DNA of 64,000 nucleotides from Thermoanaerobaculia bacterium (GCA_034665065.1 JAXDGL010000008.1:319412-383411), one strand, 5' to 3'; positions 2,845 through 57,125 are shown, numbered from the stretch's first letter. Notes: generated by a model from the sequence alone, not told the origin. Made by a program: numbers and translations.

Positions 2845-4065
2845 ATGCTCAGCTCGCCCACGCCGCTTCTGCGGCGCGTAGCCATCGAGAATTTCAAGAG
2901 CATCGCAAAGTGCCGCGTAGATCTCGCTCCGCTGACGATCCTCGTCGGGCGCAACGGTTCTGGTAAGAGTAACTTTCTCGACGCACTGAAATTTGTTGCC
3001 GACGCGCTTCAGACGTCACTCGATCACGCGATCCGAAGCCGAGGAGGTATCGACGATGTGCGCCGTCGAAGCACCGGCCATCCCCGAAACTTTGGGATAC
3101 GTCTGGAGCTTCTTCTTCCAAACCTTCATAGGGCGGACTTCACATTCGAGATTGCCTCTCGTCCCGGAGGATCGTTCGCCGTAAAGAACGAAGAGCTTAA
3201 TGTAGTTTCGCCGAGCGGCTCGAAAACGGCAAATTATCACCGCGAGGAAAGGAGGGTTTCTTCCGAGAGCCATACAACAATGCCTCCTGTGCTCGACGAC
3301 CGCCTCTTTCTCGTCAACGCCGCTGGCCTTCCGGAATTTAGGCCCGCATATGATGCCCTCGTTGCGATGGGTTTCTATAACCTTGATCCCGAAGCGATGC
3401 GGGAGCCGCAGGCACCCGACGCTGGAGAGTTGTTGCATCACGATGGAAGTAACATTGCCAGCGTAGTGGGACGTTTGTCGGCACATCCGTCGGACGTTTT
3501 AGCTCGGATCAGTGACTACCTCCGGCACATTGTTCCTGCCGTCGAAAGTCTAGAGCGAGCACCTCTTGGACCGCGCGAGACGTTGCAGTTTTTGCAGAAG
3601 GTAAAAGGCTCTAAGTACCCGTGGCGTTTCTATGCCTCCAGTATGTCGGACGGCACGCTTCGGGCTCTCGGCGCGCTTGTCGCGGTTACACAATTTGCGG
3701 AAGGCGCACAGACGGTGCGACTAGTTGGTATAGAGGAACCTGAAACCGCACTTCATCCTGCCGCCGCTGGAGCGCTTATGGATGCCTTAAGGGAGGCGAC
3801 GAAACACACTCAGGTGATTGTGACCACGCATAGTGCCGATCTGCTTGATCAAGTCGATATCGATCGTGACGGGCTGCTGGTTGTCGTGTCGACAGACGGC
3901 GTCACCAGAATCGCCCCGGCGGATGAAGCTAGTATCAACGTTGTTCGTGAGCATCTCTACTCAGTCGGTGAACTGCTGCGAGCGGATCAACTTGTCCCCG
4001 ATCCTACAAGTCTCGAAGAACAGGATCAGCTGGAGTTGTTCTCAACCGGCACCGCGGCCCAATGA
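2845..4065 (+). CDS. ABC/OLD-type AAA ATPase (AAA_21/AAA_15-like)
   Basis: Walker A VGRNGSGKSNFLDAL near the N-terminus. Walker B/D-loop region RLVGIEEPETALHP and TTHS near the C-terminus. Architecture matches ATPase subunits of OLD/PARIS/AbiL/Gabija-like systems. Confidence 0.8.
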   Translation: MLSSPTPLLRRVAIENFKSIAKCRVDLAPLTILVGRNGSGKSNFLDALKFVADALQTSLDHAIRSRGGIDDVRRRSTGHPRNFGIRLELLLPNLHRADFTFEIASRPGGSFAVKNEELNVVSPSGSKTANYHREERRVSSESHTTMPPVLDDRLFLVNAAGLPEFRPAYDALVAMGFYNLDPEAMREPQAPDAGELLHHDGSNIASVVGRLSAHPSDVLARISDYLRHIVPAVESLERAPLGPRETLQFLQKVKGSKYPWRFYASSMSDGTLRALGALVAVTQFAEGAQTVRLVGIEEPETALHPAAAGALMDALREATKHTQVIVTTHSADLLDQVDIDRDGLLVVVSTDGVTRIAPADEASINVVREHLYSVGELLRADQLVPDPTSLEEQDQLELFSTGTAAQ

Positions 4066-4870: not shown

Positions 4871-6582
4871 TTTTCTCCGGCCGCGGGAAAGACGGGTGTG
4901 ATGTCGACGGGGATGTCCTTCAGCGTCGCGTTGACTGCGGCCATCTCCGGCGTTTCCTTTCCGTAGCGATCGAGCAGCGCTTTCGCGCGCGGATAGTCAC
5001 CCGTCGCTTCGATCGTCAACAGTTCCGTGGCGAGATCGCGGACTGCGTCGCGCGATTTCGCGAAGTCGACGGTGAAGCGGCCGCCCGCGATCGGCGTGAC
5101 CGCGCCTTTCTCGCGCAGCCAGTTCCACTGAATCGCGGTACCGCGTCCGTGCGCTTCTCCGACTCCGAATCGTGTCGAGCGGAACATGAGGCCGGCGTAG
5201 GTCGCCAGCAGTTGGCGTTCATTGAAGGCAGTGACGAGTCCGTGCTGCTGTGCATAGAGAAGATTCCAGACGCCGAGAACGTCGGCCTTGCACTCTTCGA
5301 CGGTCGAGAAAAGCTCTTTGAGCGGGATGCGTACCTCGACGCGTTTGCCGTCCGCTTGCGTCAGGAATCCTGGCCCGAGGCCGTGGGAGAGCTCGTGGAA
5401 GAGAACGTGATTGAAGAACGCATCGAACGAGACGAGACTTTGCAGCGACGAATCGAGCACGCGCGCGGCGATCGGCTTGCCGCTCTGCCGGAACTTGGCA
5501 TCCATCACGTTCTTGAGCAGGACTTTCTTCGAACCTTTCTTCTCGCGCACCACTTCGTCGTTCGGCAGATTGAACGCCGCAGTCTGCACGCCGTTGCGCG
5601 CGTCGCCGGCGGTGTAGAGCTCCTGCACGACTTTGATCGGCGACTCGCTGCCGCGGTTGGGATTCTTGTACTGCTCCGGCTCCGGCAGATTCTTCTCCAT
5701 GTCCGGAAGCGCCTTCGCATACGCGGCGAGCTTCGCGCTTTCGGGTTTATCGACGACGGTCACGAACGACTCGTACGACGCTTTGTAGTTGAAGAGATTG
5801 TCTTCGTAGACTTCGTACGGACCGATGACGACTTCGATGTTGCCGGCGAGGTCCATCCAGGCCATGTCACTCTCTCGATAGTTGTCGGAGAGCAGCGCGT
5901 CGGCGCGGGCGGAGAGAAAGCGCTTCAGCGTTGCATCGGTCGTGATCGCCGCGGCCTCGCGAAGATTTTGCGCAGCCGGCTTCAGGTAGTCAGCGTAGTA
6001 GGCGGCGTACGGAATGCCGACGAGGTTCGTACCATCGCGCCGGACGACGGCGAAGAGTCCCTCCAGCTCCTCCTTCTGCGATGGATGCGCGGCAACGTAG
6101 CGCTCGAATTCATCCTTCGTGATGTCGGACGGATAAAACGCGGCGCCCGGCGGCTTCGCGCCTGCGGTTCCGAAAGGCGCGATGAACGGCTCGTCGCTCT
6201 TCAATCGGTCCCAGCGGCCTTTGTTGGCGATGAAGTAGTCGAGAGCCGCTTTCTGGAGTGGCCCTCCAGCGCTGGCATCGCCGAGCTTTTTCAGAAGCAG
6301 CGGATTCTCTTCGCTGACCTGTCGCCAGTAGATCTCCTCGATTTGCTTCGACGCCTCGATCAGCTTGGCCACGACCTGACGCTCATTGTCATTGAGCAGC
6401 GCGTGGTCGTAGTCGATGACCGTGCGCGGAAGCTGGGCCATGCGCTGCGCCGTATCGGGCGCGATCGGGGATGACGCAGCCGCCGTTGATGGTGTTGCCG
6501 CCGGAGCGGTTGACGTCGGAGTGGTTGCTGTCTGGCACGCCGTGGCGGCGGCAGCAATGAGGAGGATCAGTCGTTTCATCAC
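4867..6582 (-). CDS. secreted/lipoprotein HEXXH zinc metallopeptidase (DPP-III/M49-like)
   Basis: N-terminal signal with lipobox-like …AATACQ, a Thr/Ala/Pro-rich linker, and an FHELSHGLG HExxH motif. 571 aa. Confidence 0.7.
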   Translation of the reverse strand: MMKRLILLIAAAATACQTATTPTSTAPAATPSTAAASSPIAPDTAQRMAQLPRTVIDYDHALLNDNERQVVAKLIEASKQIEEIYWRQVSEENPLLLKKLGDASAGGPLQKAALDYFIANKGRWDRLKSDEPFIAPFGTAGAKPPGAAFYPSDITKDEFERYVAAHPSQKEELEGLFAVVRRDGTNLVGIPYAAYYADYLKPAAQNLREAAAITTDATLKRFLSARADALLSDNYRESDMAWMDLAGNIEVVIGPYEVYEDNLFNYKASYESFVTVVDKPESAKLAAYAKALPDMEKNLPEPEQYKNPNRGSESPIKVVQELYTAGDARNGVQTAAFNLPNDEVVREKKGSKKVLLKNVMDAKFRQSGKPIAARVLDSSLQSLVSFDAFFNHVLFHELSHGLGPGFLTQADGKRVEVRIPLKELFSTVEECKADVLGVWNLLYAQQHGLVTAFNERQLLATYAGLMFRSTRFGVGEAHGRGTAIQWNWLREKGAVTPIAGGRFTVDFAKSRDAVRDLATELLTIEATGDYPRAKALLDRYGKETPEMAAVNATLKDIPVDITPVFPAAGEK

Positions 6583-6603
6583 ACTCTCCTTCAGAACGCG
6601 GGA

Positions 6604-7254
6604 TTGTACGTGAGCCGAACGCTCTGCTATCGTCAGGCCACTTCCAGCCGAGGTTCTCTATTGATCATCGAGTGCACGAGCTGTCACGCGCGGTATCAGT
6701 ACGACGAGGACCGCTTCGACCGGAAGCCGGTGAAGAAGATCAAGTGCGCCAAATGCAGCACGGTGTTCGAGATCCAGAATCCTGCGTTCGCCGAGAAACC
6801 GGAGCCGTCCACCGGTGAGTCGACGTTCGCGCGGCGCGAGGAGACCCGCACGCGCGCGCCCGAACCGAAAGAGACGAAGGAGACGACCGAGGAGTCGCGC
6901 CTCCCGGATCGCGGCACCGGTCCGCGGCCAGCACAACCACAGTTGCCAACGGGCAGGCGCATTTCGATCGCCGTCATCGCCGGGACGGACGCCGGGATGG
7001 TGTATCGAGTAGAGAAGCCGCGCATCACGATCGGACGCGCCGGCGCCGACTTGACCATCAACGACGGCGAGGCGTCGCGCCAGCATGCCGCGATCGAAGT
7101 GCGCGACACGGTCATCACCGTCGAGGATCTGAAGTCGACGAATGGAACGCTGATCGACGGCGAGAGGATCATCCAGCCGGTCGAGCTTCAGGACAAGGCG
7201 GAGTTCCAGATCGGCGGCACGACGCTGATGCTGATCATGACGGACGATGGGTGA
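6604..7254 (+). CDS. FHA-domain protein with N-terminal MJ0042-type zinc ribbon
   Basis: CTSCHARYQYDE…KCAKCSTVFE zinc ribbon. C-terminal FHA domain (ITIGRAGADLTINDGEASRQHAAIE…STNGTLIDGERI). The likely true start is the TTG at 6661 (MIIECTSCH…). Confidence 0.8.
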   Translation: MYVSRTLCYRQATSSRGSLLIIECTSCHARYQYDEDRFDRKPVKKIKCAKCSTVFEIQNPAFAEKPEPSTGESTFARREETRTRAPEPKETKETTEESRLPDRGTGPRPAQPQLPTGRRISIAVIAGTDAGMVYRVEKPRITIGRAGADLTINDGEASRQHAAIEVRDTVITVEDLKSTNGTLIDGERIIQPVELQDKAEFQIGGTTLMLIMTDDG

Positions 7255-7537
7255 TTGATTGCGCTTCGCGCGTTGTCGGTTGTCGGTTGGTTGCGCTTCG
7301 CGCGTTGTCGGTTGTCGGCGCTTCGCGCCTTTTCTAGAACGATCCTGCCCCGTCTTGGGCGGCGAGTATTCCAAGCATGAAGAGTTCGATCAGCTCCCGA
7401 ATTCGACACTGGCGCAGACAACGCGCGAAGCGCAATCAACCGACAACCGACAACGCGCGCAGCGCAATAAGACAACGCGCGAAGCGCAATCAACCGACAA
7501 CCGACAACGCGCGAAGCGCAACAAGCGCAGCGCAATA
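7255..7537. repeat. composite direct+inverted repeat of a ~36-bp GC-rich unit
   Basis: Unit TTGATTGCGCTTCGCGCGTTGTCGGTTGTCGG occurs twice in direct orientation (7255-7328) and twice as reverse complement (7419-7537). Can fold into a long hairpin with a ~90-nt loop. Confidence 0.8.
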
Positions 7538-8749: not shown

Positions 8750-10372
8750 ATGTCCAGACGTCTCCTCTGTTTCTCGTTCTTACTTCTTCTCGTTTCGCTT
8801 CCGGCTCTTGCCGACTCGCCGGGCGTGTACGCAATCACGGGTGGCACGATCCACCCGGCCAGCGGGCCGGAGATTGCGAACGGCGCGGTGATCATTCGCG
8901 ACGGTCTGATCGAATCGGTGGGCTACGCGGTGGCCATCCCGCTCGACGCCACGGTCATCGACGTGAAAGGGGGCCACATCTACCCCGGCCTCATCGATGC
9001 GATGACGTCGCTCGGTTTTCCAAGTGCGAGCGCGCCACGACGACGCGGTGGTGGGGGAGCAGCGGCGCGCGCGCCGGCAGCCGATCCGTTGCCCGAAACG
9101 GGGCCGTCGTTTCTCGCCTTTCGCGAGGCGAAGCTCTCCGACGATGACGTCGACGCCAAGCGCGCCACCGGCGTGCTGACGATCGTCACCGCACCTTCGT
9201 TCGGCATTTTTAACGGCCAGGCCGTCGCGCTGAACCTCGGCGGCGGGACGATGGAATCGCGCGTCGTTCGCAATCCCGCATGGCAGCAGATCTCGTTCAA
9301 TCCGCGGCCCGCGTGGACGTATCCCGATTCGCTGATGGGCGTGATCTCGTACATCAAACAGACGCTGCTCGACGCGCAGCAGCACGCGGTTGCGAAGTCG
9401 ATTTACGACAAGAATCCGGCCGGCTACAAACGTCCTGACGAGAGTCCATCGCTCGACGCCCTCGGCTCCGTGCTGCGCCGCGACGTGCCGCTCCTCTTCG
9501 TCGCCGACAGCGAGTTGATGATCCGTCGCGCCGAAGCAATCGCCAAAGAGTTCAACGTGCGGCTGATCATCGCCGGCGCGCGGCAGGGCTACAAGATCGC
9601 CGATGAGTTGAAATCGATCGGCGCGCCCGTGCTGGTCTCGACGAAATGGCCCGTCGCGCCGGCGGAGAAGGAGGATCGCGACGAGCAACCGCTGCGCGTC
9701 ATCCGCGACCGTCAGCTCGCGCCGACCACTCCCGCGGTGCTGGCAAAGAGCGACGTGCTCTTCGCGCTCGTCAGCGGTGCCGGGAAGACCGGCGACTTCA
9801 TTCCCGGGATACGCAAAGCGATCGAGAACGGGTTGTCTGCGGACGACGCGTTGCGCGCCACGACGATCAACGCAGCGAAGATCGCCGGCATCGACCGGCA
9901 GCTCGGATCGCTCGATCGCGGCAAGATCGCGAACATCGTCATCACCGACAAGCCGATCTTCGACAAGGAAGCGAAGGTGAAACGGATCTTCATCGACGGC
10001 CGCGAATCGAAAGTAGCTGTCGAGGATGAGAAAAAGAAACCGAGTGGCGGGACGGCGACGGCGGGAGCATCGGCGTCGAGCATCGACGGCAGTTGGAGCT
10101 TCATCGTCAAGACCACCGCCGGCGACGCGAACATCTCCGCGACTCTGCGCGTCGAGAATGGCCAGATCAGCGGCACGTTCTCCGGCGACCGCGGCTCCGG
10201 CAGCATCGGCAACGGAACGTTCGACGGCACGACGGTCGAGTTTTCGATCGCCGGCCGCGGCAAGGAAGAGGCGGGCGACTGGCTGTTCCACGGCACGCTG
10301 CACGGCGCGAACATGGAGGGAACTGTAGCGACGACGCTCGGCACGTTCCCGTTCACGGGGAGTAAGAAATGA
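8750..10372 (+). CDS. secreted amidohydrolase-family protein (paralog 1, metal-binding HxH replaced)
   Basis: Signal peptide [21 protein letters not shown]. Amidohydrolase fold motifs ([17 protein letters not shown]; C-terminal [13 protein letters not shown]). The canonical HxH after the GLID motif is absent. Confidence 0.8.
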
Positions 10373-38240: not shown

Positions 38241-38334
38241 GTCCGCAGATTACGCAGATGTTCGCAGATGAAGATTGATTCCAATCTGCGTCAATCTGGG
38301 TAGTGGTCTAGTTTGACCGAAGGTTTGTAACATG
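38241..38334. repeat. left terminal inverted repeat of the 5.9-kb lower-GC island
   Basis: CCGCAGATTACGCAGATGTTCGCAGATGA…CTGGGTAGTGGTCTAGTTTGAccgaaggtTTGTAACATG. The reverse-complement partner lies at 44038-44176. Confidence 0.7.
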
Positions 38335-38622
38335 TTTGCGGGTACGCCATCACTACCTCAATTCACGGGAAAGCTCTTCGTTCGCGAGTCTGACGAACGT
38401 CTCGACTACGACACTCCGCAGTTGATCCGCGACGCGCTGCACGATCTGGCCTTCGATGTCGTGGTAGAGCCCCTGCTGTTCTTCGTCATCGCCCCGGCCA
38501 GTTCATGATTCCGGTTTCAGAGCAGGCGTCAGTCATCGCTCCAACATTTGCCGAAAGACGAAACCATTCGTCCGCGAATCTCTCGCCGTGCTCGCGCGTG
38601 ATCACATCGACGATATCCAAGC

Positions 38623-38883
38623 TCATTCCGTCTCCCTGCTCTCCAGAACGGCGACATAGACCGCTTCGTCAGCTCGCGACAGCTCAAACAGTTCCACGAT
38701 GTAGACGGGACGAGAGAGCATTTCGGAAGCGGTTTCCGCAAGGGCGATCATGAGGCGGCGTGTTGGCTCACACTCACCCCCGCGCAACCGCCGAAACTGC
38801 GAAGGGCTGATCCCGGCGCGCTTCGCGAACACAGAACCCCTGACACCACACGCCCGCATGAAACGCATCGAACCGCGTCGCAC
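38623..38883 (-). CDS. XRE-like HTH regulator (divergent from 39004 gene)
   Basis: VFAKRAGISPSQFRRLRGGECEPTRRLMIALAE resembles an HTH_3 helix-turn-helix. Confidence 0.45.
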   Translation of the reverse strand: MRRGSMRFMRACGVRGSVFAKRAGISPSQFRRLRGGECEPTRRLMIALAETASEMLSRPVYIVELFELSRADEAVYVAVLESRETE

Positions 38884-39003
38884 GGCGTTCCTTTATGCGG
38901 CGCTCCCGGCGCTCTGGCATCGGCCACGTTTTCCTTTGCACACCGATAGCATGTCACACTCATAGCATGACTAGCAACAGGAACATGGACGCACACTCAA
39001 AGC

Positions 39004-39231
39004 ATGGCTGTTCGTCCGGTCGAGAAGTTCGCCGCGCACCTTCGCGAGTTGCGCGAGAAGCGTGGACTCTCGCAGACGAAGCTCGCGGAGCTGGCCGGGC
39101 TCAATCGGAACTACGTCGGCGACGTGGAACGCGGTCGCCGGAATCCATGCTTCGATAACATCATCAAGCTGGCCGAGGGGTTGAACGTCTCGCCATCGGA
39201 ACTCTTCCGGCCATTTGACAAACGGCGGTAG
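39004..39231 (+). CDS. XRE-family HTH transcriptional regulator
   Basis: LRELREKRGLSQTKLAELAGLNRNYVGDVERGRRNPCFDNIIKLAEGLNVSPSELF is the canonical HTH_3. Confidence 0.8.
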   Translation: MAVRPVEKFAAHLRELREKRGLSQTKLAELAGLNRNYVGDVERGRRNPCFDNIIKLAEGLNVSPSELFRPFDKRR

Positions 39232-39249: not shown

Positions 39250-39516
39250 ATGCCAAAGGGGTCAAGCAAGCGCCCGAAGAAGCGCGAGGACGAAGCGCAG
39301 GCCGCCGTCCGCGTCATGAACACGATCGCCGCGAGGTCTGAGGCGGACGCGCTCGATGATGCACCGGTTGAGATCACTGACGCCATGCGCGCCGCTGCCG
39401 CCGCGTTCGGGCGCATGGGCGGAAAGATTGGCGGACCGGCGCGAGCGGCGAGCATGAGCGCGAAGCGGCGCTCCGAGATCGCCAAGAAAGCTGCGCGTGC
39501 GCGTTGGCAAAGGTAG
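39250..39516 (+). CDS. hypothetical small basic protein
   Basis: 88 aa. Lys/Arg-rich ends. 18 nt downstream of the XRE gene. Confidence 0.4.
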   Translation: MPKGSSKRPKKREDEAQAAVRVMNTIAARSEADALDDAPVEITDAMRAAAAAFGRMGGKIGGPARAASMSAKRRSEIAKKAARARWQR

Positions 39517-39656
39517 CCCGCTCGGATCAAGGCAAGCGAGGTTACCGGAGTCGTTAGGGTGAGTGCTAAAGTGTAGGCGAGCAAAGACACGAAAACCGGC
39601 TGGCAGGTCGGTCGTGCGAAGTTACGTGAGGGGCAATCGAGCGTGGAGATCTTGCC

Positions 39657-40247
39657 ATGCCGATGTTTGCTTGTCAAAGCAGTCCAGGATCATCAAGTCA
39701 ACCGATTGCAGCGTACGGGTTCCCAATGCCGCTCGCCGAAAGTGATATCAAAGAGCTGTTGAGCTTTACCTACATGCGGGCCATCGCCGCAAGGGCTGGG
39801 TTCCGCGTCAATCATCCGTACCCTGACCGCCAACATGATGACTTGCAAATCGACTCGTGCGGTCGATTAGAGCCGGACGGCTGGAGTGCAGCGCGCATCG
39901 ATTTTCAGGTCCGAGCAACAACCACGATCCCCCTTGCTGATGGCGGCGAATTCGGATTCCAGGTCGAAAGGTCTCTGTATGATGACCTTCGGGATGATAG
40001 GCGCTGCGCACCTTTGTTGCTGGCTGTCTTCATAATGCCGCCGAACCCCGAGCAATGGCTGAGCGCTACTGCCGCCGAACTGATCACACGCCACTGCGCC
40101 TATTGGGGCAACATTAAGGGCGCGCCGCCTATCGAGGCAGAGTCTCGCGTCCTACACGTCAAACGCGCCAACACACTCACGGCGGCTTCGCTAACCGATT
40201 TGATGAGGATCGCCGGACGGCGGCAGGAGATTGGCGATGCTTTATAA
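39657..40247 (+). CDS. DUF4365-like hypothetical protein
   Basis: 196 aa. Lower-GC codon usage. Loose resemblance to the DUF4365 family (recalled). Confidence 0.5.
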   Translation: MPMFACQSSPGSSSQPIAAYGFPMPLAESDIKELLSFTYMRAIAARAGFRVNHPYPDRQHDDLQIDSCGRLEPDGWSAARIDFQVRATTTIPLADGGEFGFQVERSLYDDLRDDRRCAPLLLAVFIMPPNPEQWLSATAAELITRHCAYWGNIKGAPPIEAESRVLHVKRANTLTAASLTDLMRIAGRRQEIGDAL

Positions 40248-41367
40248 AGGTCTGCCGGTCGACTCCCTGAAGCATGTCAATTACATTGCCGTGCGCAATT
40301 ACATCAAGAGCCGTGGCTGGACCAGGATCGGTAACGGCACAGGCACGGCATTGTTTCGCTCTCCGAGCGATCCAGATGCTGAAGTACTCTTGCCTCTGTC
40401 GAAGATGTTCTCTGACTATTCGATGCGCATAGGAGATCTGATCCTAGCGGTGTCGGAAATCGAACAGATTCCCCCGGTACGGTTGATGGCTGATCTACTG
40501 TTGCCGCCCAGCGATATATTGCGTTTCAGTGTTCAAGCGACGGACACGTCTAGCGGTACCGTGCAATTCGACAGCGGCATGGATTTGTACGCCGGTATTC
40601 GCACAGCAATGCTAAGTTCTGCGAGAGCCGCCGAACATCCCGAGAAATATTTCGAGCGCCTAAAGGATTCGGACGACTTTGTGTCGCAGTGCCGACTTGG
40701 ACAGACGGAGTTCGGCAGTTTTACCGCCACGTTTGTGTGTCCTGTTGAGGCGCTGCCTGAAATCGACGTGCAGCCTGATCTCTTCGCTGATTTAGCACAC
40801 GCGCCGACTGCTAGAGAACCATTCGCGCGCAAAGTCACGCGGACACTCATGCAGGCTGTCGCTATCGTCGCTAACGCCATTGCAAATGATACCGTGGCTG
40901 ATTTGATTGCCTCGACAGGGCCGGTTAGCGCGAATCTATGTGAAGCGTTGTTAAGGATGGAGCCGGTACAGGACGGTCAATTGACAGTCGCCTCAAGCTG
41001 GGCGCGTGTATTGATTCCACCGGCCGATACCGCTGCTTATGTTGTAATACCAAAAGAATACTTCGGTCCCATTGCGGAGATCGCGACTGCGCTTCGTCCT
41101 TCAAAGGAACCAAAGGATGCACCTTTCGTAGGCAAGGTCATTACGTTGGCCGGACAGGAGCACGATGGCGAGCTGTCCGGTCCAGTGACACTTTACATCT
41201 TGACGGATGACGAGCCGGTCCGCGCTCGGGTGAGTCTGAGCCACGATGACTATATGAAAGCTTACGACGCGCACGGTAGAATGACGGCGGTTTCTATTAC
41301 CGGGAAATTGAAGCGCGCCTCACGATCGGCTGAGATCATCGATTACACCGATTTCAAACTTGTTTAG
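40231..41367 (+). CDS. hypothetical protein (partner of 39657 gene)
   Basis: 378 aa. Overlaps the upstream gene by 17 nt. No recognisable motifs. Confidence 0.55.
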   Translation: MAMLYKGLPVDSLKHVNYIAVRNYIKSRGWTRIGNGTGTALFRSPSDPDAEVLLPLSKMFSDYSMRIGDLILAVSEIEQIPPVRLMADLLLPPSDILRFSVQATDTSSGTVQFDSGMDLYAGIRTAMLSSARAAEHPEKYFERLKDSDDFVSQCRLGQTEFGSFTATFVCPVEALPEIDVQPDLFADLAHAPTAREPFARKVTRTLMQAVAIVANAIANDTVADLIASTGPVSANLCEALLRMEPVQDGQLTVASSWARVLIPPADTAAYVVIPKEYFGPIAEIATALRPSKEPKDAPFVGKVITLAGQEHDGELSGPVTLYILTDDEPVRARVSLSHDDYMKAYDAHGRMTAVSITGKLKRASRSAEIIDYTDFKLV

Positions 41368-41586
41368 TAGCTCGCTATCCACGTCCTGTCCCTCCCATAT
41401 CGATTCCGCTTTCGGTGTGCGTTGGTCCCTGTTGGTCCAAGGCCGGTCCAGCCACCTGCGAGAGCGTGGCGTGACGCACCGACAGCAGCCGCCGTGTGTT
41501 ACGATCCTGTCGGGCGGTAGTGGCGACTGATCATCGTTCCGACGCCGGACAGCTCGCGCCCGGTCCGCCCGAAGTGCGTTCCTAGC

Positions 41587-42435
41587 GTGGGCAGGAGCGC
41601 GAGCGTGAGCGTGAAACGACGGCGGAAGAGTGCGCGCGCAGACGAGTCTCTCGCCGATTTACAAAGCACCGATCCCTTCGCAGATATCGACTTTATCTCC
41701 TCGCAGCTATGCAATGAGCGATCAGGATGGAGCGACCCGCCCGCCGAAGACATCGTTACTCTGCAAGTGTCAAGGACGGTCCAAGCCTCCTTCAGCACTC
41801 GCGCGTTAGTTGCCGGCTTAATGGTCGGATTTGACGACATTCTTAGCACTTCGCCACGCGGTTCCGAGTTCGAAGCATCACTCCGCGAGTTAATGAGTCG
41901 CCGCCCCGACCTCTCGGAGAGCGAAGCGCGCACAGCCCGCCTAAAGCTGCACGCAGCCGCTGTCCAAATTTTCACCTCCGAGGCGGCCAGAGCATTTGAG
42001 CAGTTGATTCCACAGTTGCTGAGCCTCGCTGTCACCGTTGCCGTCGCCGCAGCAGAGCCGATTGCGGCTGAAGCCGCGCAGGGGTATCAGCCTCGGGACA
42101 TTAAGACCGGCGAGAGAATACGTTTCACGTTTCCCAAAGAGAGAAAGATCGAGTGGCGCGAGGGAATCTTGCGAGACACAGAGAGTGAAATCCGGAAGAT
42201 CCTCGGGAAGCTTAAAAGCTCTCCAGGGGCAAAAGGTACCGCAACGCGCGACCTTCACGCCTTTCAGCGGCGCGAGGAAGTATTTGCTCGTGAGAAAGCG
42301 AGCGGCAAGAGCGACCGACTCGCGTGGACGGCGGCGAAGGCTACCGTGCAGAACGAATTCCCCAAGCTACGCAAAGAAGCTACCTATGAAACTGCTATGA
42401 GGCGCGGTAGGCGGATCGCTCCCCCGAAGAAATAG
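41587..42435 (+). CDS. hypothetical protein
   Basis: 282 aa. Competes with the antisense ORF 41499..42035. The plus-strand ORF is favoured by length and codon bias. Confidence 0.4.
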   Translation: MGRSASVSVKRRRKSARADESLADLQSTDPFADIDFISSQLCNERSGWSDPPAEDIVTLQVSRTVQASFSTRALVAGLMVGFDDILSTSPRGSEFEASLRELMSRRPDLSESEARTARLKLHAAAVQIFTSEAARAFEQLIPQLLSLAVTVAVAAAEPIAAEAAQGYQPRDIKTGERIRFTFPKERKIEWREGILRDTESEIRKILGKLKSSPGAKGTATRDLHAFQRREEVFAREKASGKSDRLAWTAAKATVQNEFPKLRKEATYETAMRRGRRIAPPKK

Positions 42436-42718
42436 AGGAGAGTAATTCATCGCCCCATCTAATCCCGCCCGCACAATTCTTGCCCCCATCGAAAGCAAAG
42501 AATCTTCTATCCGATATTGCTCGCGCAGAAATGGCGTGCTTCACTCAGCTCCACAAGCCGAAGCCTGTTTGCGGCGGGGGGAAAGGAGTTGATGTGCATG
42601 AGAAGACTGCAAGCCGTCCGCGTTCTGGTCACCGACGCGGAGAGCGGCCAGAAACACGAACGCCGTCTCGGGTAGTTGCTTGACCGGCAACCGAGACGGC
42701 GGGTGGTGATCCTGCGAT

Positions 42719-42795
42719 GCTCCCGTAGCTCAATCTGGACAGAGCGGCGGTCTACTAAACCGACGGTGTGGGTCCGAGTCCCACCGGGAGCGCCA
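42719..42795 (+). tRNA. tRNA-like gene with atypical anticodon (parses as ACU)
   Basis: Cloverleaf: acceptor GCTCCCG/CGGGAGC, D-arm GCTC-AATCTGGACA-GAGC, anticodon arm GCGGT-CTACTAA-ACCGA (G27·A43 mismatch), T-arm GTGGG-TCCGAGT-CCCAC, discriminator G, CCA. The short variable loop is inconsistent with Ser. Confidence 0.55.
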
Positions 42796-42906: not shown

Positions 42907-43791
42907 ATGAACAAACTCTCCAGTGACGCCCGCGCCCGCATCATCATGGCTCTGATCGAAGGCAACTCGATCGCGTCTACGTGCCGGATGACGGGCGCGG
43001 CAAAGATGACGGTGCTGAGTCTCATCCGCGAAGTCGGCACCGCATGCGCCGCGTTCCATGACGCGGTTGTGCGCGACCTCGCAACGGAGCGCGTGCAGGC
43101 CGACGAAGTATGGTCGTTCTGCGGCATGAAGCAGAAGAACGTCCCTGCCGACTTGCAAGAGACGGTCGGCATCGGCTCGATCTGGACGTGGACGGCGCTT
43201 GATGCGGACACGAAGCTGATGATTTCTTGGCTGGCGAGTAACCGTAGTGCGGAAGCTGCGAACGCGCTCCTCGCTGACCTCAAGTCCCGCACGTCGGCAT
43301 CGAACGAAATCCAAATCTTCTCGGATGGACTGGCGTAGTACATCGATGCGGTCCGGCAGAGCTTCGCACCCGGTGAAGCGAACCTTGGTCAAGTCGTGAA
43401 AACCTACGAAACCAGTAGTCCGCAGCCGGGCATGAATCCGAACAGTGCGGCGAGTAGGTATTCACCGGGACGCCTGCTCTCGATCGAGAAAACTGCACCT
43501 CTCGGCACGCCGGACATGAAGCACGTTTCGACCTCGTTCATGGAGCGGTTCAACCTCACGCTCCGCATGCAGAACCGGCGCTTCACGCGCCTGACGAATG
43601 GCTTCTCAAAGAAGTTCGAGAACCATTGCCACATGCTTGCAATGACGATGGTTTACTACAACTTCTGCCGGAAGCATCAGTCACTGAAGGGCCGGACGCC
43701 CGCGATGGCGGCGGGACTTACCGAGTATCGTTGGACGGCGGCGGATCTGCTGTCGCTGGAGATGTGGAGCGCGGCGGAAGCGGCAGCCTAG
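42907..43791 (+). mobile_element. IS1-family DDE transposase interrupted by a single in-frame TAG
   Basis: Recalled similarity to E. coli IS1 InsA HTH (ARIIMALIEGNSIASTCRMTG) and InsB (DEVWSFCGMKQKN; …IFSDGLA*YIDAV…; ERFNLTLRMQNRRFTRLTNGFSKKFENHCHMLAMTMVYYNF). ORFs 42907-43338 and 43396-43791 share a frame; the TAG at 43336-43338 is the only interruption. Confidence 0.75.
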
Positions 43792-44037
43792 CGCAGCCGC
43801 TTGCGCAGCTCACGCCGTATCTGATCCGCTATTTCGTCATCAGACTTCCCATGGTCTACGACGAACTCCACCAACGGATCACGGAGGATATGCACGTGCC
43901 ATTCGTTATTCGTTTGGCTGCCAACGATGCTCCATAGCGCGGTTACGCCGAATTCACCCTCGACAATAGGTTTCGCGATGGCCGTCAATTTGGATTGCAT
44001 GATTGTGGAGGGGTCGCTGGCCCCCGTTCCCTACCCC

Positions 44038-44176
44038 ATGTTACAACTTCCACTTCAAACTAGACCACTACCCAGATGTGTGCAAATGGACGGTTTCATC
44101 TGCGCCGATGTTGGTCCGCGACACAGGTGTATGCAGAGGAAGGGCTTATCTGCGAACATCTGCGTCATCTGCGGAT
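44038..44176. repeat. right terminal inverted repeat of the island
   Basis: CATGTTACAActtccactTCAAACTAGACCACTACCCAG…ATCTGCGAACATCTGCGTCATCTGCGG is the reverse complement of 38241-38334, with a ~50-nt indel. Confidence 0.7.
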
Positions 44177-46445: not shown

Positions 46446-46500
46446 CTCGGTTCCTGGAGTCCTGGACTAATGTCGATACCTTTGTCTATACTATTTGTTC

Positions 46501-46740
46501 ATGAAGGAGAGGGCAAAGATTTTCCAAAACGGAGGAAGCCAGGCAATCAGGCTTCCGAAGTCCTGCCGCTTTGATGACGGCCAGCATGAGGTGCTCGCCA
46601 AGCGTGTTGGCCGCCGTGTCATCCTGGAAGTGGCCGATGAGTGGACCGACGACTTTATCGCGGCGCTCGGCGCATGGAAAGAGTCGATCGAGAGGCCCCG
46701 TTCTCGGAGCATTTCAAAACTGAGAGATCCATTTGAATGA
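46501..46740 (+). CDS. vapB: VapB antitoxin (AbrB/SpoVT fold)
   Basis: MKERAKIFQNGGSQAIRLPKSCRF… is the AbrB-type swapped-hairpin N-terminus. 4-bp overlap with vapC. Confidence 0.8.
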   Translation: MKERAKIFQNGGSQAIRLPKSCRFDDGQHEVLAKRVGRRVILEVADEWTDDFIAALGAWKESIERPRSRSISKLRDPFE

Positions 46741-47135
46741 GCCTGGCGTTCATGCTCGACACCGATACCGTGAGTTTCGCCTTGCGCGGACAAGGGCGGG
46801 TCGGCACCGCTATCCTCAAGCACCGTCCTTCTGATCTCTGCGTGAGTGTTATCACTGTGGCCGAGTTGCGTTACGGCGCGACGCGGCGCAAGTCGGCAAA
46901 GCTGCATGAGCTGATCGGCACATTTACGCGCAACGTGGAAGTCGTGCCATTTGATGACCCCAGTGCTCTGGAATTCGGACGCATCGCCAGCCATCTTGCA
47001 GATGCCGGTTCACCAATCGGCGAGCTCGATACCCTGATTGCTGCACATGCGATGAGCCTTGATCTGACACTCGTTACGAACAATGGGAAGCATTTCGGGC
47101 GCGTGCCGGGACTGAGGCTTGACAACTGGTTGTAG
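46737..47135 (+). CDS. vapC: VapC PIN-domain toxin
   Basis: MLDTDTVSF…ITVAELRYG…LDTLIAAHAMSLDLTLVTNN conserved PIN acidic residues. Confidence 0.85.
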   Translation: MSLAFMLDTDTVSFALRGQGRVGTAILKHRPSDLCVSVITVAELRYGATRRKSAKLHELIGTFTRNVEVVPFDDPSALEFGRIASHLADAGSPIGELDTLIAAHAMSLDLTLVTNNGKHFGRVPGLRLDNWL

Positions 47136-57027: not shown

Positions 57028-57125
57028 GGAGGCGAATGGGGTCTGGTGGCTCCCGCGGTCTTCAAAACCGTTGTTTCGGCGCGGAAGCGTCGAAGGGTCG
57101 GTTCGATTCCGACGCGCCTCCGCCA
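57028..57125 (+). tRNA. selC: tRNA-Sec (selenocysteine, anticodon UCA)
   Basis: 98 nt. Acceptor GGAGGCG(A)/GCGCCTCC, 6-bp D-stem with 4-nt loop (GGGGTC-TGGT-GGCTCC), anticodon loop CTTCAAA (UCA), long variable arm, T-arm GTCGG-TTCGATT-CCGAC, discriminator G, CCA. Confidence 0.8.

Follow-up and report, generated by a model that had tools for sequence, protein, structure and literature searches.

A DUF4365-type gene pair of a Thermoanaerobaculia bacterium matches the uncharacterised phage defence candidate PDC-M02 and carries a variant active site

Introduction

What is the function of two overlapping genes, one of which encodes a nuclease-like DUF4365 domain, in the genome of a Thermoanaerobaculia (Acidobacteriota) bacterium? 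The two genes, hereafter A and B, lie on a contig of a metagenome-assembled genome (GCA_034665065.1 JAXDGL010000008.1:319412-383411); the 64,000-nucleotide (nt) stretch that was analysed is referred to below as the window, and all positions are counted from its first letter. An earlier note on this DNA had described the pair as the main cargo of an island and had proposed that it could be a toxin, abortive-infection or defence module borne by a degraded integrative element. Here we show that both genes match, over nearly their entire length, the models of PDC-M02, an object that is already catalogued and belongs to a family that is uncharacterised; we weigh the roles that this cassette might play, and describe a natural variation in the active site of its nuclease.

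The phage defence candidates (PDC) were collected among genes that lie inside BREX, DISARM or type I restriction-modification (RM) loci, an approach known as "guilt-by-embedding", and are untested according to the authors of the catalogue; PDC-M02 corresponds to cassette CAS_00021, which was counted 894 times in RefSeq (Payne et al. 2024, bioRxiv 10.1101/2024.01.29.577857).

Results

Assignment of the gene pair to PDC-M02

Gene A matched 25 of the PADLOC models of PDC-M02A (best E-value 1.6e-37), its residues 24-189, numbered on an open reading frame (ORF) of 196 amino acids (aa), being aligned with positions 1-164 of a 167-position model. Gene B matched 36 PDC-M02B models (best E-value 3.6e-101; residues 12-377, model positions 9-371 of 374). 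No named system other than PDC-M02 was matched by A and B in the PADLOC scan. The gene order is also that of the candidate, with A followed immediately by B, both on the plus strand and overlapping by 11-17 nt, and we regard it as nearly certain that the pair is an intact member of PDC-M02.

Both ORFs described in the earlier note are present on the plus strand (39657-40247, 196 aa; 40231-41367, 378 aa, with a TTG start) and have 17 nt in common. Their true starts are probably located further downstream: gene calls on the source contig and homologous sequences place the first codon of A at ATG 39726 (39726-40247, 173 aa) and that of B at ATG 40237 (40237-41367, 376 aa). A sequence resembling a Shine-Dalgarno motif, AGGAG (40225-40229, plus strand), lies within the 3' end of A, 7 nt ahead of ATG 40237, and an overlap of 11 nt is therefore likely. 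The position of this AGGAG inside A, together with the fact that overlap is the norm in the family, suggests that the two genes are translationally coupled.

A and B are considered real genes rather than chance ORFs because of the Pfam DUF4365 score of A, the thousands of relatives of B and the constraint on substitutions. In the comparison with the closest relative, dN/dS is ~0.10 for A, and pN is 0.19 versus a pS of 0.77 for B; by these measures both genes are under purifying selection. The low GC content that had been claimed for the pair holds for B (53.4% versus 62.3 +/- 2.3% for the other ORFs, z = -3.8), which has the lowest value among the longer ORFs of the window, and only modestly for A (57.9%, z = -1.9). 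A distinct codon usage was not recovered, the pair being no outlier by a simple, admittedly crude, distance measure.

The co-occurrence of the two genes was assessed in 80 genomic loci from Planctomycetota, Myxococcota, Armatimonadota, Pseudomonadota, Bacteroidota, Acidobacteriota and Chloroflexota. In 75 of them, B is directly preceded by a homologue of A in the same orientation; two loci end at a contig edge and three are devoid of A (75/78 assessable loci). Stop and start codons overlap in 50 of the 58 intact homologous pairs (by 4 nt in 23 pairs, 11 nt in 18 and 17 nt in 4), and the distance matrices of A and B are correlated (r = 0.77). A conserved third gene could be ruled out, as no gene other than A and B recurred when the neighbours at 70 loci were clustered. 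The homologues were not embedded in metabolic operons, and the cassette evidently moves between genomes as a unit.

Protein A: a minimal nuclease domain with a variant active site

Gene A encodes a stand-alone PD-(D/E)xK nuclease domain of the DUF4365/DREN type, with no additional domain within its 173 aa. Pfam DUF4365 (PF14280, PD-(D/E)xK clan) was matched with 39.2 bits, compared to a gathering cut-off of 24.3, over positions 2-138 of the 139-position model. The predicted structure adopts the restriction-endonuclease-like PD-(D/E)xK fold and is Hjc-like, and a sequence search with A returned no meaningful match in the PDB. DUF4365 is the DREN domain of SPARDA short-Argonaute systems, where it is the collateral DNase effector, and the characterised DUF4365 nucleases are immune effectors that act non-specifically (PMC10810196, PMC12205087). 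An isolated DREN domain is monomeric and inactive, and becomes active when it tetramerises on the filament of the sensor (PMC12205087). For TmuRE, a DUF4365 nuclease, the active site is proposed to include Q62 and K64, and the double mutant Q62A/K64A was used by the authors as an inactive control (PMC10810196).

Aligned members of the A family conserve E10, D34, D39 and the motif Q61-x-K63. The copy analysed here retains E10, D34, D39 and Q61, and has an arginine at position 63 (QVR instead of QxK), so that the upstream acidic residues are not accompanied by an intact catalytic Q-x-K. A lysine occupies position 63 in 64 of 68 relatives, and R63 is confined to the subclade of the present copy among the 68 aligned members. 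A second replacement affects the conserved Asn84, in place of which this protein has a leucine. The combination of QVR and L84 is common to four distinct sequences (this copy and three close relatives), down to 69% identity, and more distant relatives carry QLK. The replacements K63R and N84L may alter or weaken the nuclease chemistry of this lineage; the pair is maintained, though the site chemistry of A could differ.

Protein B: the cassette-specific partner

Gene B encodes a partner protein specific to the cassette, for which no Pfam or NCBIfam family was found, and which matched a single PHROG, of unknown function. A profile search retrieved 7,110 cluster representatives, and nearly all of the best 150 listed are 366-418 aa long. 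The predicted model of B, which is confident, ends in an OB fold and also includes a small alpha-beta3-alpha (HicA/dsRBD-like) module; judging from the order of secondary structure elements, residues ~16-76 would form the HicA-like module and residues ~294-376 the OB fold. A conserved central region displays the motifs GQTExGS, EPFxR and SANLC(E/D)AL, and Foldseek on the full-length model identified no fold for it. Against the PDB, the full-length model had no match at E<=1e-3 and no full-length counterpart, and the B profile had no meaningful match among PDB sequences. Neither Argonaute nor APAZ structures were present among the structural matches of B, and, with a threshold as permissive as E<=5, neither B nor any of 32 homologues matched HicA or HicB in Pfam.

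Genomic contexts of the relatives

In nine of the 80 loci, as counted by tblastn, the genes are arranged in the order hsdM-hsdS-A-B-hsdR, that is, within type I RM operons, and this type I RM subset is all that was apparent when the neighbours were pooled and scanned against PADLOC and Pfam. In the closest relative (68% identity), the cassette follows a divergent helix-turn-helix (HTH)/XRE pair, and its surroundings include an IS1595 element, a CAP12-type TIR protein, HigBA, BrnTA and a DpnII-like enzyme. Plasmid copies exist in Gluconobacter, Phaeobacter, Pusillibacter and others, at times adjoining RelE/ParE genes or integrases. Candidate carriers in culture are Gluconobacter albidus (pGS1191_1, A0U94_RS14320/25), Phaeobacter inhibens M623 and Archangium gephyra SDU49. 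On one viral contig (an IMG/VR match) the pair has a CI-like repressor on one side and a serine integrase on the other; no match was obtained by tblastn against phage GenBank records. The earlier interpretation is supported in part: the pair forms a conserved two-gene module, inherited together and with one nuclease-like member, that matches PDC-M02 and is found in type I RM operons, on plasmids, in toxin-antitoxin and defence islands and in a prophage lysogeny region.

The segment that carries the cassette

In the window, the cassette resides within a 5.9-kb segment with imperfect inverted repeats at its two ends, the left arm of which lies at 38242-38335 and the right arm at 44037-44175, where it abuts the stop codon of kdpE. 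These repeats (~95-140 nt, with cores of 28 nt at 96% and 23 nt at 100% identity) were found nowhere else in the window. The same repeats (arms at 3430-3476 and 9690-9747) are present on a related metagenome contig, L096 (~80% nucleotide identity), along with the same backbone of small HTH genes, an XRE gene, orf88, a slot, a tRNA gene and an IS1 element. The orientation of the segment relative to kdpE is reversed in L096, which suggests that it was inverted by recombination between the repeats, or that it moved as a unit.

Homology to L096 stops at the stop codon of orf88 and resumes near position 42598. The variable slot thus delimited (39517-42597) holds A, B and one more ORF in the window, and a different, unrelated gene of 243 aa (5738-6469), with no Pfam or PADLOC match, in L096. 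Since a related genome keeps the backbone with another gene in the slot, A-B is exchangeable cargo, in agreement with what had been proposed. The additional ORF, downstream of B (41587-42435, plus strand; 282 aa at most, called as 204 aa from 41821), lies outside the conserved cassette; it has no Pfam, PADLOC, NCBIfam or PDB match, and no homologue in 82 related loci. Beyond its tRNA gene, L096 carries an extra DUF3800 gene (6635-7405), which matches PADLOC DUF3800_VII and which, together with the L096 slot gene, hints at a backbone that serves as a hotspot for cargo of the defence type.

The notion of a degraded integrative element fared less well and is one possible description only. No integrase or recombinase ORF was detected in the region 38.2-44.2 kb, nor any tRNA-derived att direct repeat, the flanks consisting of the inverted repeats only; a tRNA-integrated element with integrase and att repeats was thus looked for and not found. 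What the segment does contain is a disrupted IS1-family transposase (42907-43791, plus strand), split into two ORFs (42907-43338 and 43396-43791) and matching NCBIfam transpos_IS1 at 1.2e-11, below the cut-off; its orthologue in L096 is intact (295 aa). It bears no similarity to the IS1595 element of the closest relative, and an identity of the two was rejected.

Upstream of the slot, the backbone encodes an XRE-family HTH regulator of 75 aa (39004-39231, plus strand; HTH_3 1e-17; PADLOC Control_protein 2.6e-20, capH 1.2e-14) and, divergently, a small HTH-like protein of 86 aa (38623-38883, minus strand), whose match to HTH_31 (6.8e-4) is below the cut-off and which has a homologue in L096 and L081. 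Of the CI/Cro-like pair that had been placed just upstream of A, the XRE gene is thus solid and its partner weak, and the Ala/Arg-rich orf88 (39250-39516, plus strand; 88 aa, a 91-aa ORF in L096, with a weak PHROG match only) and a 210-nt gap separate the XRE gene from A. Being retained in L096, which lacks A-B, the XRE module belongs to the backbone. An XRE gene with 44% identity lies upstream of the closest A-B relative, and the other 80 loci lack the gene; the XRE pair, seen only in that relative and in the L096 backbone devoid of A-B, was therefore rejected as a part of the A-B system. The 120-nt intergenic region between the divergent HTH and XRE genes contains ATAGCATG twice in direct orientation, at 38946 and 38962 (38946-38969), 16 nt apart, and a different duplicated motif, CTTAGCCCCGGG, occupies the equivalent place in the closest relative. 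The duplicated ATAGCATG may represent candidate operators.

An atypical tRNA gene (42719-42795, plus strand; ARAGORN; Rfam tRNA, 59.4 bits) follows the slot. It has the anticodon ACU, a short variable loop and the T loop UCCGAGU, in which C55 replaces the near-universal U55. ARAGORN names it 'Ser(ACT)', and its short variable loop is not Ser-like; residues A20, C35, U36 and G73 look Arg-like under the E. coli identity rules. The L096 homologue (6588-6664) keeps ACU and C55 and displays compensatory changes in the anticodon and T stems, for which reason the structure appears to be under selection. The gene might encode a mutated, island-borne tRNA-Arg(UCU/ACG) that reads a Ser codon, or be a tRNA-like element. 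Elsewhere in the window, a VapBC-like pair (an AbrB-type antitoxin ORF and a PIN-domain toxin) is found at 46495-47135, just past kdpDE, and a tRNA-SeC gene at 57028-57125.

Discussion

Relation to known systems

In architecture, the cassette is identical to PDC-M02: the full-length matches of A and B, their order and their strand are the same, and relatives are found in type I RM operons, as in the discovery of the candidate. The present copy differs in belonging to the QVR/L84 subclade, in its XRE/C-protein-like regulator and in the inverted-repeat segment that carries it. SPARDA shares with A the DUF4365 (DREN) domain type and the active-site motif of the family, and shows that such a domain is able to serve as an oligomerisation-activated, non-specific immune nuclease. 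In contrast to A-B, however, the SPARDA nuclease is fused to APAZ and has a short pAgo (MID-PIWI) encoded next to it; since A-B possesses neither APAZ nor Argonaute, guide-dependent sensing is not expected. Archaeal Hjc Holliday-junction resolvases and the homing endonuclease I-Ssp6803I have 9-15% sequence identity to A, which differs from them by an extra C-terminal beta/alpha extension and by a context that is mobile or defence-related rather than housekeeping. The small module of B resembles HicA toxins and the YcfA-like dsRBD fold (PDB 1whz, 6g26) at the level of the fold only, B having no sequence match to HicA or HicB that would mark a HicAB-like type II toxin-antitoxin system. Finally, as in RM systems with a controller (C) protein, the 75-aa XRE protein matches Control_protein and precedes the nuclease gene, both here and in the closest relative; unlike in those systems, there is no methyltransferase, and the regulator is not kept with the cassette elsewhere and persists in L096, where the cassette is lacking.

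A tentative sensor-effector model

On genomic context alone, we lean slightly towards a role of the cassette in defence or against mobile elements. The best explanation of the data as a whole, to which we would give an even chance, is that this is a selected copy of PDC-M02 acting as a sensor-effector immune module. A more specific model, built on the analogy with SPARDA and on the predicted structure of B, is put forward tentatively, as it is somewhat more likely to fail than to hold: B would sense single-stranded nucleic acid and license oligomerisation-dependent cutting by A. We infer here that A and B form a physical complex, that B does the sensing, what kind of cue it recognises and that oligomerisation activates A. 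In such a scheme, B would be bound to A and hold it inactive or monomeric until recognising a cue from the invader, most plausibly single-stranded DNA or RNA; cue-bound B would then shift the state of assembly, so that A would oligomerise and cut DNA, the outcome being abortive infection or destruction of the invader. We consider it rather doubtful that the module is mechanistically new in the fullest sense, with B, of a previously undescribed overall fold, as a sensor of single-stranded nucleic acids controlling a minimal DREN nuclease, as an Argonaute-free counterpart of SPARDA by analogy, and with a QVR/L84 site remodelled under selection, which would point to altered activity or a non-catalytic role.

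Several observations weigh against an immune function. In the literature searched, we found no experimental test of any PDC-M02 member, whether for defence or for toxicity, and some other PDC candidates failed when tested (PMC12409345). Most of the loci do not adjoin recognisable defence genes, and some have ordinary neighbours. The catalytic lysine (R63 here) and Asn84 are absent from the present copy. In one lineage, moreover, an orphan B (homologue P0035, loci L087-L089; 11 contigs) has no DUF4365 gene upstream; it has a VapBC pair on one side and type III RM genes (methyltransferase, helicase, RE_endonuc) on the other, and because B occurs in this way without A beside type III RM, it may have a function of its own.

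Alternative explanations

The same evidence can be read in other ways. A and B could be the two subunits of a restriction-like enzyme, in which B would read some feature that marks DNA as foreign (a modification, for instance, or an unusual structure) and recruit A to cut it, conferring direct immunity of a type IV-like, methyltransferase-less kind. The restriction-endonuclease/Hjc fold predicted for A, the frequent nesting of the cassette in type I RM operons or beside type III RM and DpnII-like genes, the likeness of the upstream regulator to RM controller proteins and the lack of a methyltransferase in the cassette are all consistent with this possibility. We nevertheless consider it unlikely, as no modified-base reader fold (SRA, YTH or winged-helix type) was found among the top structural matches of B, whose recognisable modules are of ssDNA- or RNA-binding types, and as the characterised DUF4365 nucleases act non-specifically. 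The pair might also stabilise plasmids and islands rather than stop phages, in the manner of a toxin-antitoxin addiction module in which B would neutralise a toxic nuclease A. The tight coupling of the two genes, their presence on plasmids and mobile islands beside RelE/ParE, HigBA, BrnTA and VapBC, the HicA-like fold of the small module of B and the XRE regulator upstream in this lineage all speak for such a role, the likelihood of which is nonetheless small: the putative antitoxin is large (376 aa) and encoded downstream, unlike in typical type II systems, it is defence genes that are typically nested in RM operons or in a prophage lysogeny region, and B exists without A, whereas an orphan antitoxin would be expected to be lost.

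A role as a DNA repair or recombination accessory of mobile elements, with A as an Hjc-like resolving nuclease and B as its OB-fold, ssDNA-binding partner, appears the least probable. The distribution of the cassette is patchy and horizontally transferred, its contexts are variable and include RM operons, linkage to recombinase or replication genes is limited to one prophage integrase, and the characterised members of DUF4365 are immune effectors. It is slightly less improbable that, whatever the family does, the cassette of this genome is a dead remnant, inactivated through K63R and N84L. R63 is indeed unique to its subclade among the 68 aligned members, the Q62A/K64A version of a DUF4365 nuclease served as an inactive control (PMC10810196), and the adjacent IS1 transposase is broken. 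Yet both reading frames are intact, the four sequences that have QVR and L84 in common diverge down to 69% identity, and the low dN/dS of A and the strong constraint on B argue for a maintained, possibly modified function.

Significance

For the window itself the result is a modest one, consisting of the annotation of a catalogued candidate and of a natural Lys-to-Arg variant of its active site, which could be useful for structure-function work. The family, on the other hand, is far from rare: only one other multi-gene candidate of the guilt-by-embedding catalogue is more abundant than PDC-M02, and clustering of metagenome sequences at 50% identity gives ~7,000 representatives of B, which nevertheless has neither a Pfam family nor a relative of solved structure. 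If the sensor-effector model proves true, the DREN collateral nuclease of short-Argonaute systems would have been recruited by a second, unrelated sensor, and PDC-M02 would be one more widespread defence system and a possible source of a new nucleic-acid-triggered nuclease tool.
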